This document shows, piece by piece, positions 10,996 to 26,992 of a stretch of DNA of 64,000 nt. Position 1 is the first letter of the stretch, and every line of letters starts with the position of its first letter. The stretch is from Escherichia phage RB49, in the sequence record NC_005066.1; one strand, given 5' to 3'. Made by a program: the position numbers and the translations under genes. Below the pieces are notes generated by a model. It made no database searches and had not been told where the DNA came from. It worked only from the letters and a program-made list of their open reading frames with translations.

Positions 10996-11474
10996 GCTAA
11001 ATCATTGCAATATTTTAGTGCCTTAGTTTGAAATTCTGCGCTGTTAAGTTCTTCATAACGGTCATAATCACCGTTTAATGCTGCCTTTCTTGCTTCTTGC
11101 TCTATCTGCATGTCAGACATGATAATACAGCGATCCCGCGCTTTCATCTTCTCAAGTTGTATAGACTCTTCTTTCTGCTTGCGCAATTCTTCTTGACGCT
11201 TCTTTTCTTCTTGTGCTTTCTCTTCCCGCGCTTCTTTGATTGCATCCTTGAACATCTGCGTTTGTGGTGCTAAACCAACTTTAACTCGATCTACGTCTCG
11301 ACGTTCCATTTTAGAAATAAAGCATGATTCGATCTGATCATCACTTGCATATGCTGCTTTACATTCACGAAGCAAGAAAACCGGATCTGATTTAGCATTC
11401 ATCATAGCTTCCATGTTGGCACAACCAGTAAGCATGAATACAGCCGCAAGACCAATCAGTTTAATCATTTTCAT
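10989..11474 (-). CDS. putative lipoprotein with coiled-coil region
   Basis: Signal peptide with lipobox LTGC; KR/E-rich coiled-coil segment. Confidence 0.6.
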   Translation of the reverse strand: MKMIKLIGLAAVFMLTGCANMEAMMNAKSDPVFLLRECKAAYASDDQIESCFISKMERRDVDRVKVGLAPQTQMFKDAIKEAREEKAQEEKKRQEELRKQKEESIQLEKMKARDRCIIMSDMQIEQEARKAALNGDYDRYEELNSAEFQTKALKYCNDLAK

Positions 11475-12295
11475 TTAGTCACCTCACCGAAAATTGTAAA
11501 TTGTCTACGATTCTCATCGCCGAAAGATTCTACTACGTCGTTTACCTTGACGCAAGTCCCGCGCGGTAAAATTACTTCACATTCGCAAGGGTTCCATGCA
11601 ATGGACCCAACAACAAAACCTTTATGATCTTTTACGTCAATTACCCATGATACATTACAAGAATGTTGCATCTTTCCGGTCATTGATTCATATCGATTCT
11701 CACAATAAAGGCTAGTGCTGTTTGATAGCCATCCTCCAAAGATGATCGGTGTCATGCTGGTTGACACAAAGTTTTTAAAGGTAAATTCCTTATCTTCAAT
11801 AATACGCTCTATTGTCTGAATGTCAAGATGTTGACCGCGATAAAGAGTACCGTTTAACTTTTCGGTTTTATCCATGACGCAATCCATCAAATCAACAATC
11901 TCTGATATCTCATCGGTCATGTCTTCTTCCCCTAAGAGAGCACCATTTACCCATTCGTATTGCTCAGACACATAATCACAGATTGCATTATATTCTGCTG
12001 GTGTTATGTTGTTATGTTTGTAATGTTTGAATACATTATCTCCAAAGTCTTCGGAGTGTACTTCATACATCACATTAATGATTTTCTTGACAAATCCATA
12101 ATCTTGTGTCTCACGCTCAAGGAAGCGGATAACCTTCACATAATCATCAAAGTTAATCTGATCGCTGATCATCTCAGTGATCATGTAACCATTAATCCCC
12201 TCAATGTCATATGTTTCAATATAATTGTCCATACGTTCCATCATTGATTCGCGTGATTCTTCCGAAAGACGAAAATCCTGTAATTTCTTGAACAT
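11471..12295 (-). CDS. Alt-like ADP-ribosyltransferase paralog (274 aa)
   Basis: R-S-E triad motifs shared with adjacent Alt: LYRGQ, FKNFVSTSMTPIIFGGW, ECEVILPRG. Confidence 0.8.
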   Translation of the reverse strand: MFKKLQDFRLSEESRESMMERMDNYIETYDIEGINGYMITEMISDQINFDDYVKVIRFLERETQDYGFVKKIINVMYEVHSEDFGDNVFKHYKHNNITPAEYNAICDYVSEQYEWVNGALLGEEDMTDEISEIVDLMDCVMDKTEKLNGTLYRGQHLDIQTIERIIEDKEFTFKNFVSTSMTPIIFGGWLSNSTSLYCENRYESMTGKMQHSCNVSWVIDVKDHKGFVVGSIAWNPCECEVILPRGTCVKVNDVVESFGDENRRQFTIFGEVTK

Positions 12296-12372: not shown

Positions 12373-14424
12373 TTACATTTTAAATTTATCTGGCATTGCG
12401 TCTACAGATACCAGATCAGCGATAAGCTGACGTAGAGTTGCCTTATCTGCTTTCTTACGTTCGGTTTTAGCTTCGCTAATGAAGCTGGAGAAAGACAGGT
12501 CAGAAGCAGGTTTAACAACACCTTCACGGATGAATGCATCACCGTCCGCGATCATCTCGCCAGATTCTTGTAATGCTGCCAGTTCATTTTTGTTCATAAT
12601 ATGTGCCTCAATGTAATAAGTTTCTTGTGAATCCGTCGATGCCGTAGCACGAGTTACCGTATCAAAGGATAACACAACACCGCGAGGAAGTAAAATCTCG
12701 CATTCTTTGTAAGCAAATGCTTTGTTACCTACTGGCAAGACAGGGATGTTTTCCGCGCCAGCAATGGAGAAAGCAACATTGGCGCCACCTTCACCGCGAG
12801 AGCCAGCCATAGAATCAACACCAGCAACGGCACTAGCCACGTTTGCATTCCAGCCGCCAAAAATGTTAGGTGCAAGGGAAGTGCTCACATAGTTTTTAAA
12901 GTAAAACGCTTTTTGCTTACGTGCAGTTTCCCACATTTGCGACCGGAAGTCCATACCACGATACAGAATAGTACCCGGATCAAGTTTAACGCCATAGTTG
13001 GAGAAGGCATTATCCAGTGCATCGCACATCTTGACCAATTCTTCTGGATCTGATATGCCTTCAAACTCTTCCAGCTTGCGGTCGGTTAGGAAGTTGTTCA
13101 TATTGATGTATGCTGCATCGGCATATTCGCTCAACACAAAACCTTCCGCGCCTGGCAGATCAAGATCAATATCTGCCATCATTTCACCCATGTTGCTAGC
13201 AATTGCTTCAAACATACCGGAAGCAACATTACGTAGGGCATCGGTTTTAATCTGGGTGATATGACTACGCAGCATTTCAGCTTTTACATCTGCTGGCATA
13301 GACTGGTCTACTCGATCCATTGCCAGGGCGGTGATCTTGTTTTCGAATACTTCCTCGCTCATGATTTCTTTTAAGCGTTTGACCGAGGCTGCGATAACTT
13401 CCGCAGACAACGGATCATATTGATCCTGAACTTTTACCAGTTCGCTTACTGCGTATTTTGCATCGGCTTCGCTTTCAAAAATAGTACGCATGAAACCATA
13501 GCGAGTGATAATATCACTTGTCCAGTCATTCAGAGAACGGGCGGTTGAACGTTCTAAGGCTTGACGGTCAATCAGAGTATTAAACTGTTTCTTAGGTTCG
13601 GCTTCGGTGATATCTTCTTCCGGTTTAAGATTAATTTTTTCTGGATGATTCACATAGTCGCTGTTATAGGTCGCTTGAGTTTTCAGCATTTCTTCTTTAG
13701 TCAAACGAGATTTAGCCGCTACGCGTTGTTCTGCTTCCGCGTTTCGTTCTTCTTCTGACACAAGACTAGCCGCATACGCTTCATCTTTAGTCAGAGATTC
13801 ACCAGTAGCCTTAGATACCCAGCGATCACCTAAATCACTTTCTACTTTAGTGAACAAGGATTCATCAAGTTTAATCCCTTTAATCTTATCAATCGCCATC
13901 CCGCGACGCTTGACAACAACTAAAGCGATCTTTTTGCTGGTCATTACTTCCTGCTGGAATACTTCAAACTTCGGTGTACGACGCACCAAACGCTCTATAA
14001 CGCGCTTAACCAGTTCGGTCTTACCTTTCATGCGGGATACGTTAAAACGGAACATAACAGCGTCTAATTGCGATTTACGGGCTGTTTCCATAACCACATC
14101 AAAAGCACTTGCCATGACTGCAATCGGGTTATCGCCTAGACCATTTTTAAGCTGTACAATACGACCGCTTTTGTTCATTTCGCACAGTACAACATGTGCG
14201 GTCTTGTCACCCATACGAATGATTTTAGGTGTTTTGTTGGTGAAGTTACAAAGACGGACAATCACATCTTTATCGCGTGTCTGTACTGCAAAAAGCTGTT
14301 TAGGATTCTGCTTAGGCTTTAAGCACTGTACCGGAGCAATACTGCCAAAGTTTTCTTCCTCTTCCGTCAACAGCCATTTCTCGAAAGATTCAATCATTAG
14401 ATCGTCGATTTCTAAGTTAAACAT
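12373..14424 (-). CDS. alt: Alt RNA polymerase ADP-ribosyltransferase
   Basis: 683 aa (T4 Alt 682); YRGMDF, FKNYVSTSLAPNIFGGW, ECEILLPRG. Confidence 0.9.
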   Translation of the reverse strand: MFNLEIDDLMIESFEKWLLTEEEENFGSIAPVQCLKPKQNPKQLFAVQTRDKDVIVRLCNFTNKTPKIIRMGDKTAHVVLCEMNKSGRIVQLKNGLGDNPIAVMASAFDVVMETARKSQLDAVMFRFNVSRMKGKTELVKRVIERLVRRTPKFEVFQQEVMTSKKIALVVVKRRGMAIDKIKGIKLDESLFTKVESDLGDRWVSKATGESLTKDEAYAASLVSEEERNAEAEQRVAAKSRLTKEEMLKTQATYNSDYVNHPEKINLKPEEDITEAEPKKQFNTLIDRQALERSTARSLNDWTSDIITRYGFMRTIFESEADAKYAVSELVKVQDQYDPLSAEVIAASVKRLKEIMSEEVFENKITALAMDRVDQSMPADVKAEMLRSHITQIKTDALRNVASGMFEAIASNMGEMMADIDLDLPGAEGFVLSEYADAAYINMNNFLTDRKLEEFEGISDPEELVKMCDALDNAFSNYGVKLDPGTILYRGMDFRSQMWETARKQKAFYFKNYVSTSLAPNIFGGWNANVASAVAGVDSMAGSRGEGGANVAFSIAGAENIPVLPVGNKAFAYKECEILLPRGVVLSFDTVTRATASTDSQETYYIEAHIMNKNELAALQESGEMIADGDAFIREGVVKPASDLSFSSFISEAKTERKKADKATLRQLIADLVSVDAMPDKFKM

Positions 14425-15022: not shown

Positions 15023-15541
15023 TTAGTTATTTTTTAATTGTTCATCTTGCAATAATGCAATCACATGCTGGCGATGTTCTTCCGATTGAGACACACCGAA
15101 AAAGTTTGTTTTGTAGAAATACTCTAATCGGTCTTCTCGTGTGCTCTCTTCCATCATGATCGCGGGTAGTCCGAGATTTCGGAAACGTCGCTTTTCTGCT
15201 GGCGTAAAATCACTGTAATACAACATAGAATCATCATTACAAGCAATGCTAAACTCATCCTTCATAAAGGAGAATATTGCGTTTAAACGCTGTTTACCGT
15301 CCACGATTTCGATCTCATAGCGAGAGCCATCATCAATCTTAGCCATTGCGATAGCACCAACCGGAAAATCATTAATCAGGTTTTCGATAAACATACGTTT
15401 GTTTTCGGTGTCCCATACTAAAGGACGCTGATAATCTGGGTTCATGTTGATATAGCCATCTTCTAACCATGCTTCATAAACAGAGATAACAAAGTTTTTA
15501 GTATTGGTATAGTAACGGCGTTTAGGCGTTAAACGGTTCAT
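15023..15541 (-). CDS. DUF262 (ParB-like nuclease/NTPase domain) protein
   Basis: Motifs PDYQRPLVW, FPVGAIAM, VDGKQRLNAI; start placed at ATG with AGGAG RBS (track ORF begins at upstream TTG). Confidence 0.7.
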   Translation of the reverse strand: MNRLTPKRRYYTNTKNFVISVYEAWLEDGYINMNPDYQRPLVWDTENKRMFIENLINDFPVGAIAMAKIDDGSRYEIEIVDGKQRLNAIFSFMKDEFSIACNDDSMLYYSDFTPAEKRRFRNLGLPAIMMEESTREDRLEYFYKTNFFGVSQSEEHRQHVIALLQDEQLKNN

Positions 15542-15542
15542 G

Positions 15543-15872
15543 TTATAGTCTCCTGAATGGATCATCACGTAAATCAATATCTTTTAAGAACTCATCCCAT
15601 GAATGGCGGATATTGTTCTTAATTCTCCAGATAAGAGCAGGGATTGAACGCTCTCCCATCTGGAAGTATGGATCATATGATCCGTATGCCCAATATGCTA
15701 CTACAATTCCACAATCAGCGCAATAGTATTCTATTTCACTTGCTGGCGACCAAAGTCCATCAATATGATCGGTGATCTTGCTTTCGATGTTATGGCTATG
15801 ACAATCAGGGCAACGGATGCAATGACCTTGTTTATCGTAATTTGACGTTAGCGAATACTTAAACAATCTCAT
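15543..15872 (-). CDS. Zn-ribbon protein (109 aa)
   Basis: CIRCPDCHSH ... CADCG cysteine pairs; TAATG overlap with upstream gene. Confidence 0.6.
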   Translation of the reverse strand: MRLFKYSLTSNYDKQGHCIRCPDCHSHNIESKITDHIDGLWSPASEIEYYCADCGIVVAYWAYGSYDPYFQMGERSIPALIWRIKNNIRHSWDEFLKDIDLRDDPFRRL

Positions 15873-23641: not shown

Positions 23642-24115
23642 TTACTCCTTATTTTCTCGCTCGTACTTTTCGAAATAAAATTCTACTGGCTGGTCATGAA
23701 TTGACAGCAAGCCAAAGCGTTTAGCCGCTCGCAATCCCATATTGCGCTGAATGTACTTCTGGAAGTTCTCGCGTATACACTTACGCCAGTATTCTAAGCC
23801 CATACAGCTTTTATAAAGATTGCATTGCACACACGCCGGATTCATGTTATCAAGTATATCATGTTCCGGTTTATGCATTCCTACAACCTTATACTTCCAC
23901 GATCCATCATCATTACGGGCAATTCGTCCATTTTCATCATAGACTACCTTTGAGCGTCGCAATACTGGTTTGATGTGGTCTGCGTGCCAGCGATCCCCTA
24001 GTTCCTCGCCACAATAGGCACAACGTCCACCATATTTCATTTTCAGGATCTGGCGTTGCTCTTTCTTTGACAATTTTTTAGGTTTAGGGGCTTTCGCCCC
24101 TTCATTATCACACAT
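23642..24115 (-). CDS. HNH endonuclease (157 aa)
   Basis: CAYCGEELGDRWHADHIKP ... NMNPACVQCN: CxxC-HxDH-N-CxxC HNH signature; overlaps 3' end of ligase gene. Confidence 0.75.
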   Translation of the reverse strand: MCDNEGAKAPKPKKLSKKEQRQILKMKYGGRCAYCGEELGDRWHADHIKPVLRRSKVVYDENGRIARNDDGSWKYKVVGMHKPEHDILDNMNPACVQCNLYKSCMGLEYWRKCIRENFQKYIQRNMGLRAAKRFGLLSIHDQPVEFYFEKYERENKE

Positions 24116-25604
24116 CGAATACCTCTTTTACTGTATTTGCAGTGGTCTTGTCGTAGCGAATACGTTTGATGATTGGGAGAAATAAAGAGAACTCCGGTTC
24201 ATCTTCTTTACGTGATTTGCTGCGGATATACCCGTTGCATGTCATCTCAATGACTTTTCCAATCAGGTTATGACGGTCAGTCCATAACATTTCTCGGTCG
24301 AGTTCATTTCGACGATCGAACGGAATTACACGTTCAGTACCATCATCACCTTTTTCGGTTGTAGTGTCGGTTAATCCCGATCCGGTGTTAGTCATCATTC
24401 GTCCGCACGCACTACGGACAGTAAAACCGCCTACCTTATTGGGGTCTTTACTATGCGGATATACATCAACAATTTCCGCGTCGAAGTCAATCACTTCTTT
24501 AAATTTAACCTGATCTTTACTACGGCGATCTTCAAATACACCATGTAAATTTTTAAGGATAATACCTTCTAAGCCCATGTTTACATAGCGATGATATACT
24601 TCGCGAGCTTCATCTATATTGTTAACTACAGTGTTTTCGATTATCTGAACACGAGGATCGTTAAGTTCTTCAACAATCTGTTTTAGTTCTTCGAATCGAT
24701 CTTTATATTGCTTCGTTGCTTTCTCATTTCCGTAATACACATCACGGTCGATAACATCCCAGACAGTATAAACAATACATTGGGCTTCTTCTTTTGGAAT
24801 AGTTCCTTTAAGTGATTTGTTGAGGATACCATTTCCAGTCTGACGGTCTGCAACAACGGATTCTTTCACTGCTTCCGCTACTGGCGTTAATGGCATTTCC
24901 TCTTCTTCAAATATCCATGACAGAGTACCATCATAAACGCTCTCAACGAAGTTCTGCGCTGGTGTTTGCGAAAGGGTAGGCATATATACCAATTCGCCAT
25001 CTAGAACAATTCCACGGCCTCGTAGACGCTCTAAAACCGCAAACAAATCATCAAGCCCTTGATAGGTATTACCTGAGCGGGTATAGATTGCTAATGTTTC
25101 CCCGTCAATATCAGCCATACCACGAGCGCCATCGCTTTTAAGTTGTGCATACGCCGGATATTTGATATTGGCAATGGTCTTATCAGAACATGACGATGCA
25201 AGGTGGCACGGCTGCTGGGGGATCAGTTTCTTCCATACCTTGTTTGCAGTGGTAGCGGAACAACCGCATTCCAGGTCACGATTCAGGACCATCATTGCAA
25301 CTTTAGCATCATCTTCTGACAAGCAAGTCAGAGTATCGGTAACTAGCTGTAATGCTGCATTACCAGTTACTTGACGTGTTGCAAGTTTATTTTTAAAGAC
25401 CTGCAATGCACCGGATAAAGACAATACAGACGAATAGCGAGACGGTTTATCGTATTTCTTTACGCCAAACGTAACCTGTTTGCAATATGCCAGATAAAAG
25501 CATTCTTTCAGCGTTTCATTGCTCGCGGATTCTTTCAGAATCTTTTCTTTCAGCGATGTTTTGTCTGTTGCTGCAAGCTGATTAATGATATTAAGAATTG
25601 ACAT
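24108..25604 (-). CDS. 30: gp30 ATP-dependent DNA ligase
   Basis: Collinear with T4 DNA ligase (KYPAYAQLKSDGAR adenylation motif, RDLECG); track ORF begins at upstream GTG. Confidence 0.95.
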   Translation of the reverse strand: MSILNIINQLAATDKTSLKEKILKESASNETLKECFYLAYCKQVTFGVKKYDKPSRYSSVLSLSGALQVFKNKLATRQVTGNAALQLVTDTLTCLSEDDAKVAMMVLNRDLECGCSATTANKVWKKLIPQQPCHLASSCSDKTIANIKYPAYAQLKSDGARGMADIDGETLAIYTRSGNTYQGLDDLFAVLERLRGRGIVLDGELVYMPTLSQTPAQNFVESVYDGTLSWIFEEEEMPLTPVAEAVKESVVADRQTGNGILNKSLKGTIPKEEAQCIVYTVWDVIDRDVYYGNEKATKQYKDRFEELKQIVEELNDPRVQIIENTVVNNIDEAREVYHRYVNMGLEGIILKNLHGVFEDRRSKDQVKFKEVIDFDAEIVDVYPHSKDPNKVGGFTVRSACGRMMTNTGSGLTDTTTEKGDDGTERVIPFDRRNELDREMLWTDRHNLIGKVIEMTCNGYIRSKSRKEDEPEFSLFLPIIKRIRYDKTTANTVKEVFDV

Positions 25605-26070
25605 TTTCACCTCGTTTTGTTAAACGTTCACGAATATCATTGAGGATACTACAAAATTCCGATTCAGTCAATATAGTCTTTAACGGATCAGTTCCACCTA
25701 TGCTATGACGTAATTTCTTATTTCCGGTCGCGAGTAATGCTTTACAAAATTCTGGGTTATTCCGTGCCATCGTAACAAATGCCAGATGTACCAGTCTGTA
25801 ATAATGCTCACTCATTCGATGAATCGGGCGACCCTGAAAATATAACATGTGATTCTCAATCTTTTCAGTTCTTCCGGTTCTTTTTGCTTTGCCGCCGTGC
25901 ATCAAAAAGATTTCTCTTTGTCTCTGAGGGTTCTTAAATCTTAGCCCCTGTAAAAATCCTTCTGTGCTGTTAATATCGCAACCAAATAGACGGAATGGTC
26001 TTTTATTGAAATTACTCAATTCACCCGATGGATAAGGTCCACCCGCATAGATATCAATTTCAGAAGTCAT
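25591..26070 (-). CDS. NADAR (YbiA/DUF1768)-like protein
   Basis: LSNF..., STEGFLQGLRF, LLATGNKKL..GG pattern consistent with NADAR domain (from memory of family consensus). Confidence 0.5.
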   Translation of the reverse strand: MTSEIDIYAGGPYPSGELSNFNKRPFRLFGCDINSTEGFLQGLRFKNPQRQREIFLMHGGKAKRTGRTEKIENHMLYFQGRPIHRMSEHYYRLVHLAFVTMARNNPEFCKALLATGNKKLRHSIGGTDPLKTILTESEFCSILNDIRERLTKRGENVNS

Positions 26071-26224
26071 TGAAACTAATCTCGCTAATCAGAGAGAACG
26101 GATCATAATCGTCATTAGGAATATCGATAGTAATCGAATGAGGATTTACCCATACACCAAACTGGTCTTCTTCGGTGAATACTTCGGTATGGATTTCGTG
26201 GATGTTTACATTCATAGTTTTCAT
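26060..26224 (-). CDS. small acidic protein (54 aa)
   Basis: Hand-found ORF MKTMNVNIHEIHTEVFTEEDQFGVWVNP...; AAGGAA RBS; stop overlaps next ATG. Confidence 0.45.
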   Translation of the reverse strand: MKTMNVNIHEIHTEVFTEEDQFGVWVNPHSITIDIPNDDYDPFSLISEISFNDF

Positions 26225-26276: not shown

Positions 26277-26300
26277 GGCGGGATTATTTCCCGCCGTTTA
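26277..26300 (-). terminator. hairpin terminator after gene 31
   Basis: GGCGGGA-ttattt-CCCGCC with T-rich tail on minus strand. Confidence 0.5.
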
Positions 26301-26671: not shown

Positions 26672-26992
26672 TTATTTATAAATTTCGACGATCTGCGCTG
26701 GAGTCAGCCCATCTACATTAATCAGACTATCAAGCCCAAAACTACGGAAACCTTCAACTGCAATTTCATATACTGGCAAAGATGTTTCTGATTCTTTACG
26801 CGGTTTTTCAACATTCGGAACTAACCACTTTTCGTATGTTTCAAACGGCATCAGTGCCGGATCTCGCGTGGCGATCATCTCGCGGACAGTACCATCTTTC
26901 TTAGTAAACTGCAAAGAGTGAGTACCGACCGAGAACATTTTCTTTAGTGCTTCACGAAGTGCGATATTATCAATTTGTTCAGTCATTATCAA
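26672..26992 (-). CDS. hypothetical protein (106 aa) between cd and 31
   Basis: Track ORF; position of T4 31.1/31.2. Confidence 0.5.
   Translation of the reverse strand: MIMTEQIDNIALREALKKMFSVGTHSLQFTKKDGTVREMIATRDPALMPFETYEKWLVPNVEKPRKESETSLPVYEIAVEGFRSFGLDSLINVDGLTPAQIVEIYK

Follow-up and report, generated by a model that had tools for sequence, protein, structure and literature searches.

Gene 30.3 and Its Neighbors

The DNA analyzed here (the window) is a stretch of 64,000 nucleotides from Escherichia phage RB49 (NC_005066.1), a Krischvirus, that is, a member of the RB49/JSE-like group of T4-type phages. Our subject is a minus-strand open reading frame at positions 25591 to 26070 of the window, which starts with ATG and extends for 159 codons and a stop. 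We refer to it as gene 30.3, or adfN, and classify its product as a NADAR ADP-ribosylglycohydrolase of the phage type. The 3.5 kb surrounding the gene exhibit 98% nucleotide identity to 58 Krischvirus genomes, including those of RB49 and JSE. The inferred protein matches the gp30.3 deposited for RB49 (AJ550428.1) with 100% identity and is likewise identical to its JSE counterpart, the gene for which differs by three synonymous bases.

The first-pass annotation had placed 30.3 immediately upstream of a DNA ligase gene. This is indeed the arrangement: gene 30 (24108 to 25604, minus strand) encodes an ATP-dependent DNA ligase, as judged by its matches to PF01068 and PHROG 114 and by the annotation of JSE, and its start overlaps the end of 30.3. 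Specifically, the ATG of the ligase gene at position 25604 lies within the final 14 nucleotides of the 30.3 reading frame, and from our reading of the sequence it is preceded by GAGGTG. Because the two coding sequences overlap, 30.3 is probably transcribed, and probably expressed, jointly with the DNA ligase gene; the arrangement suggests that the two genes likely belong to the same transcription unit and are translationally coupled.

On its other side, 30.3 is flanked by an open reading frame of 54 amino acids (26060 to 26224, minus strand), which we identify as 31.-1 from its match to PHROG 15277 (E = 3.7e-42) and from the annotation of RB49. The stop of 31.-1 overlaps the start of 30.3 by 11 nucleotides. 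This small gene is conserved yet fast-evolving, being 44% identical in a relative whose 30.3 protein is 69% identical to that of the window. It is also the first gene past a GC-rich hairpin with a T-rich tail (26277 to 26295, minus strand), a terminator-like element that was detected by a pattern scan only and that separates gene 31 from the 31.-1/30.3/30 block; the hairpin is weak evidence for a terminator, because shuffled sequence is expected to yield as many such sites as the region contains. No strict match to a sigma-70 promoter, a MotA box, or a late promoter was found in the interval that extends from this hairpin to the 31.-1/30.3 block. A T4 late-promoter motif, TATAAATA, is present at 26680 (minus strand), directly upstream of gene 31.

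The order annotated in JSE is of the T4 type, namely pseT, cd, 31.1, 31, 31.-1, 30.3, 30, and an HNH gene, with alt located further on. The HNH endonuclease open reading frame (PF01844; 23642 to 24115, minus strand) shares 8 nucleotides with the end of the ligase gene and is probably a free-standing homing endonuclease that was inserted downstream of gene 30. Meanwhile, the homolog of gp31.1 (26672 to 26992, minus strand) contains a domain of the WYL_2 type (PF10902; Sm-like SH3). The label "tail fiber protein" occurs among the features under this region in several near-identical phage records and, if attached to the gene for gp31.1, may be an annotation error.

Gp30.3 and the NADAR Superfamily

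The first-pass annotation took the product of 30.3 for a NADAR-like protein on the basis of certain residues and their spacing. We located these motifs at Leu18-Ser19-Asn20-Phe21, at Thr36 to Phe45 (TEGFLQGLRF), at Leu112 to Gly116 (LLATG), and at Gly125-Gly126, and comparisons of profiles and of fold support the assignment to the superfamily. The protein matches PHROG 652 and the Pfam family Phage_30_3 ("Bacteriophage protein GP30.3," PF08010), the latter with a score of 132.5 bits where the cut-off is 36 (E = 1.2e-38) and over positions 2 to 138 of a profile of 138. A search with the Pfam NADAR model had been put forward as a check on the assignment, with a match to an unrelated family as the outcome that would count against it. 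The first part of this check is formally negative, because PF08719 scored below its curated cut-off (15.5 bits versus 35.1, E = 0.021), whereas the second came out in favor of the assignment in that the significant match, PF08010, is not to an unrelated family but to a branch of NADAR.

That PF08010 is a branch of NADAR emerges from the family as a whole. Nearly half of its diverse members (42 of 85) reach the Pfam NADAR model at an E value of 0.1 or lower (the best at 1e-6), and no other family approaches this. When an 86-member profile of the family was compared with the sequences in the PDB, the best match was YbiA of E. coli (E = 6e-4), with a NADAR of known crystal structure in second place, and alignment of an 85-member profile (alignment A2 without its AR1 row) with YbiA by hhalign yielded a probability of 95.6% (E = 1.2e-8). 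The structural modeling that had also been proposed as a check was also favorable: the AlphaFold2 model of the protein has a pLDDT of 96.8, and its only structural neighbors are YbiA, a NADAR protein of Phytophthora, and the DarG1-NADAR of Geobacter, while its matches in BFVD are homologs of gp30.3 followed by viral NADAR proteins. The protein thus has the YbiA/NADAR fold and consists of the core domain only. Because of the matches of family members to NADAR, the alignment of the family profile with YbiA, and the structural neighbors, we conclude that gp30.3 and its relatives make up the phage branch of the NADAR superfamily.

One competing identification arose from a single-sequence phmmer search of the PDB, in which the protein matched the D-alanyl carrier protein ligase DltA (7vhv, E = 4e-4), with a weak echo in NCBIfam. 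We attribute this match to chance: it vanished when the family profile was used, with YbiA and NADAR coming first, and the fold search revealed no similarity to an adenylation domain.

Residues of known importance in NADAR proteins are conserved. Glu37 (codon GAA, 25960 to 25962, minus strand) corresponds to E36 of T4 AdfN and to E43 of PnNADAR and was aligned, pairwise and by hhalign, with the Glu of the T4-type protein and that of YbiA. Every sequence of alignments A1 and A2 (85 and 86 sequences) has Glu here, as do 161 of 167 family domains; Glu at this position contacts the distal ribose (PMC11543638). Toward the other end of the protein, His122 (codon CAT, 25705 to 25707, minus strand), which is present in 160 of the 167 domains, aligns by hhalign with the Glu of the "LVEHT" segment of YbiA. 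A His here has been described as a signature of phage NADARs, its counterparts being Glu in YbiA and Asp in DarG1 (PMC11125620, PMC11543638). The C-terminal helix is intact as well, spanning residues 136 to 158 by DSSP on the model (region 25594 to 25665, minus strand), and the pairwise alignment extends to the end of the T4-type gp30.3. By comparison, the allele of the DarTG1-sensitive phage RB69 is truncated and lacks this helix (PMC11257639). Finally, all of the near-invariant residues of the family are retained (L18, S19, N20, F26, Q41, Q51, A62, R85, L112, G125, T132, L134, T135, E138, L143, and R147).

The gene is under purifying selection. Against a syntenic relative whose protein is 69% identical, dN/dS was about 0.12 for 30.3, a ratio that is approximate because synonymous sites are near saturation; it is comparable to the values for the neighboring genes cd and pseT (0.09 and 0.20, respectively).

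Among other members of the superfamily, YbiA (2b3w) is the best match of the protein by sequence profile and by structure, and the E-x6-K/R and LSNF motifs are common to both. In the column of the Glu that defines the YbiA family, however, the phage protein has His122, and the physiological role of YbiA is a different one: it is an N-glycosidase for riboflavin intermediates that is encoded on the chromosome between rhlE and dinG/ybiB. The ybiA gene has been described as part of a LexA-controlled operon (PMC11125620). DarG1, the NADAR antitoxin associated with DarT1 (BC4488 family; E. coli C7 and Geobacter lovleyi, 8bat), differs in that no gene for a DarT lies adjacent to 30.3, the neighbors of which are 31.-1 and the DNA ligase gene, and in that His122 replaces the catalytic Asp. 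The RB49-type protein also has no counterpart of the N-terminal helix and beta-sheet extension found in DarG1 (PMC12945103), and in uninfected cells T4 AdfN was unable to take the place of DarG1 as antitoxin (PMC11125620, PMC11825919). The phage NADARs of the Bas32 and Bas60 types and viral NADAR-domain proteins belong to the same superfamily and are structural neighbors in BFVD, but they form separate branches that match Pfam NADAR instead of PF08010. Where tested, they had anti-DarTG1 activity, and they can neutralize DarT1 without phage infection (PMC11257639).

Relationship to T4 AdfN

NADAR enzymes hydrolyze guanine-linked ADP-ribose, and their key residues have been defined (Schuller et al. 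2023, PMC11543638). Gp30.3 of T4 hydrolyzes guanine-ADP-ribose in vitro (2024 study, PMC11125620; also PMC12945103) and has been renamed AdfN, for anti-DarT factor NADAR (Johannesman et al., bioRxiv 2024; Nat Commun 2025, PMC11825919). Genetic and biochemical work has established it as a DNA ADP-ribosylglycohydrolase specific for guanine that neutralizes DarTG1. In the absence of adfN, T4 or T2 suffers an approximately 10^4-fold loss of plaquing on DarTG1; ectopic AdfN rescues RB69, whose own allele is the truncated one; purified AdfN removes ADP-ribose from DNA modified by DarT1; and DarTG2 is not countered by the protein (PMC11257639, PMC11825919). The substitutions E36A and K43A impair AdfN, with K43A permitting partial rescue only (PMC11825919), and adfN was also conditionally essential on DarTG1 in an independent transposon screen (HIDEN-SEQ preprint, bioRxiv 10.1101/2025.11.20.689424). 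Counter-defense against DarT-like toxins, a function that the first-pass annotation had suggested for 30.3, has therefore been demonstrated for the T4 ortholog (PMC11825919, PMC11125620, bioRxiv 10.1101/2025.11.20.689424).

The RB49-type protein resembles T4 AdfN in its membership of PF08010, its length class (159 versus 152 amino acids), and its core-only NADAR fold; in having the critical Glu (E37/E36), the phage-specific His (H122), and an intact C-terminal helix; and in the location of its gene in the interval from gene 31 to gene 30, in what is likely the transcription unit of the ligase. Our T4-type reference was gp30.3 of AR1, the gene for which is 99% identical in nucleotide sequence to that of the T4-derived phage T4_ev151 and in which E36 and K43 occupy their published positions. 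Unlike this reference, to which it is 38% identical (E = 4e-30), the RB49-type protein has Arg44 at the position of Lys43. In addition, genes 30.1 and 30.2 are missing here, with the result that 30.3 abuts and overlaps the ligase gene, and Krischvirus has been reported to lack the T-even hydroxymethyl-cytosine pathway (PMC13390438). A dependence of AdfN on hydroxymethyl-cytosine DNA would have been awkward for a Krischvirus protein, but we dropped this idea because T4-GT7, the DNA of which is unmodified, is still protected (PMC11825919).

We therefore regard it as quite probable that 30.3 encodes the Krischvirus ortholog of AdfN, a minimal, single-domain NADAR ADP-ribosylglycohydrolase that most likely removes the ADP-ribose that a DarT1-type toxin of the host attaches to guanines of replicating phage DNA. 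By analogy with the T4 ortholog, its substrate would be N2-ADP-ribosyl-guanine in DNA and its role would be to counter DarTG1. On this model the protein, probably produced from a transcript shared with the ligase gene, would bind ADP-ribose on the N2 of guanine in phage DNA by means of its small, core-only NADAR domain, Arg44 would hold the diphosphate, and Glu37 and His122 would mediate cleavage of the N-glycosidic bond. The block to replication imposed by DarT1 would thereby be reversed, restoring replication and permitting the phage to grow on E. coli carrying DarTG1. The RB49-type protein and its experimentally characterized family were both known already, in that the family, fold, chemistry, and biological role were published between 2023 and 2025 and the exact protein had already been deposited as gp30.3 of RB49. 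The AdfN counter-defense would thus be carried by the RB49/JSE group of T4-type coliphages, a group from which phages for therapy are being isolated and which is predicted to resist DarTG1-bearing hosts.

Weighing against this explanation are the low identity to the T4 enzyme that has been tested and the presence of Arg44 in place of an important Lys. A further consideration, which we also count against it, is that AdfN of T4 is fully active only during T-even infection, regardless of cytosine modification (PMC11825919), and because of this we can only infer, by analogy, that the function carries over to a phage of a different genus. Our literature search found no paper tying Krischvirus or RB49 to DarTG1 or to AdfN.

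Three alternatives were considered, each of which is less likely than the AdfN reading. The one that fares best is an enzyme that has been weakened or redirected by the change at position 44, such that it acts on another substrate (guanine-ADP-ribose in RNA or the adducts of another toxin) or is too inefficient to be of use against DarT1. The Arg44 codon (AGA, 25939 to 25941, minus strand) lies at the position of K43 in T4 AdfN and K50 in PnNADAR, a residue that contacts the phosphate and adenine of ADP-ribose. Thus the Lys that is found seven residues past the Glu in T4 (K43), PnNADAR (K50), and C7 (K95) is represented here by a natural variant, Arg, which is a conservative change. The change is not obviously neutral, because the equivalent substitution in the DarG1-NADAR of E. 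coli C7, K95R, preserved activity in vitro but abolished the rescue of cells from DarT1 (PMC11543638). Moreover, Arg is a minority residue (6%) in this column, which among the 167 family domains is Lys in 151, Arg in 10, and something else in 6 (2 of these being gaps), and the protein also departs from the family consensus at other positions (D29F, M36T, W78F, and E89H). Against this, Arg is found in several unrelated members that are scattered through the family (P0018, P0035, P0095, P0097, and P0142), which argues that it is tolerated. The relative with 69% identity (L005) has it as well, as does L006, a T4-like phage from a metagenome that is unrelated and has the same 30.3, ligase, and alt neighborhood. 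Furthermore, Glu37, His122, Arg85, and the other near-invariant residues have been kept, and the lineage that bears the Arg is under purifying selection (dN/dS of 0.12). We accordingly judge a weakened or redirected enzyme to be unlikely.

A related idea is that the AdfN proteins of the Krischvirus clade have undergone a fixed and selected Lys-to-Arg change that has shifted their substrate range, kinetics, or partner requirement relative to T4 AdfN; the shifted substrates might include, for example, RNA adducts or the adducts of other base-directed transferases. We hold this to be doubtful, but if true it could help to explain why the activity of AdfN depends on the infecting phage. A natural Arg at a key Lys position offers a small and inexpensive test case for the importance of the residue in vivo.

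The second alternative, which had been raised in the first-pass annotation, is that gp30.3 is the eraser of a phage-internal pair, acting on marks that are written by the phage's own ADP-ribosyltransferases some 11 to 14 kb away. The window does contain the two transferase genes that had been noted (11471 to 12295 and 12373 to 14424, both minus strand and both PF03496), the second of which is Alt-like, and alt and 30.3 are both close to gene 30 in T4-type genomes. Alt of T4 and other Alt-type enzymes modify arginine on proteins. The NADARs that have been characterized, including gp30.3 of T4, act instead on base-linked ADP-ribose of nucleic acids, the base being guanine or, for some families, cytidine (PMC11125620, PMC11543638, PMC12945103). 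Moreover, adfN of T4 is dispensable when DarTG1 is absent, unlike what would be expected of a regulator of Alt or Mod marks, and the proximity of the genes reflects the conserved gene order of T4-type phages, the gene lying elsewhere in other phages (in a tRNA cluster, for instance). The pairing with the Alt-type transferases is thus without support, and we consider it very improbable.

Least probable of all is a metabolic N-glycosidase that, like YbiA, acts on reactive intermediates of the riboflavin pathway or on other small molecules and not on DNA: the similarity in fold and profile is highest to YbiA, which is annotated as an N-glycosidase, but gp30.3, like all phage NADARs, has His in place of the family-defining Glu of the last strand, and its T4 ortholog acts on DNA, with a phenotype that is specific to defense.

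Homologs in Other Phages and Additional Observations

By tblastn, homologs of gp30.3 are present in 1,508 phage records, in 1,500 of which the match spans at least 80% of the protein. An example of a homolog in a different setting is that of Klebsiella phage Roth16 (PQ657790.1; L003, 2501 to 2950), which is located within a cluster of tRNA genes and hence indicates that linkage of the gp30.3 gene to the ligase gene is not universal. The Roth16 homolog is labeled "anti-CBASS protein acb1." Acb1 is a member of an unrelated protein family. The label is apparently a misannotation, and the HIDEN-SEQ preprint assigns acb1 to gene 57B of T4.

Among metagenomic relatives, the gp30.3 domain is found fused to thymidine kinase, to a calcineurin-like phosphoesterase, to leucine-rich repeats of the BspA type, and to a second copy of itself. 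Other such domains carry a recurrent N-terminal region of about 315 amino acids that is very hydrophobic, that looks membrane-spanning, and that matches no Pfam or PHROG family. (The relatives with fusions or with an N-terminal region are P0019, P0021, P0024, P0039, P0058, P0061, P0070, P0086, and P0100.) The fusion partners are heterogeneous, and some of the fusions may be artifacts of gene calling.

The closest relatives of the window include the Krischvirus phages TB34 and SAP. These phages are more than 99.9% identical to each other, and TB34 has canonical cytosine whereas the cytosine of SAP is fully modified, neither having known modification genes (PMC13390438, 2026).

Lastly, searches with the models of PADLOC produced no match at an E value of 1 or lower for gp30.3 of the window or for its T4-type counterpart. 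The same collection did detect an open reading frame of 184 amino acids (15023 to 15577, minus strand) between alt and a block of small open reading frames, which matched the models NsnA (6e-20) and PD-T4-2_A (6e-12). Its inferred product contains a GmrSD_N/DUF262 domain (PF03235, E = 6e-20), a nuclease domain of the defense type in a lytic phage.
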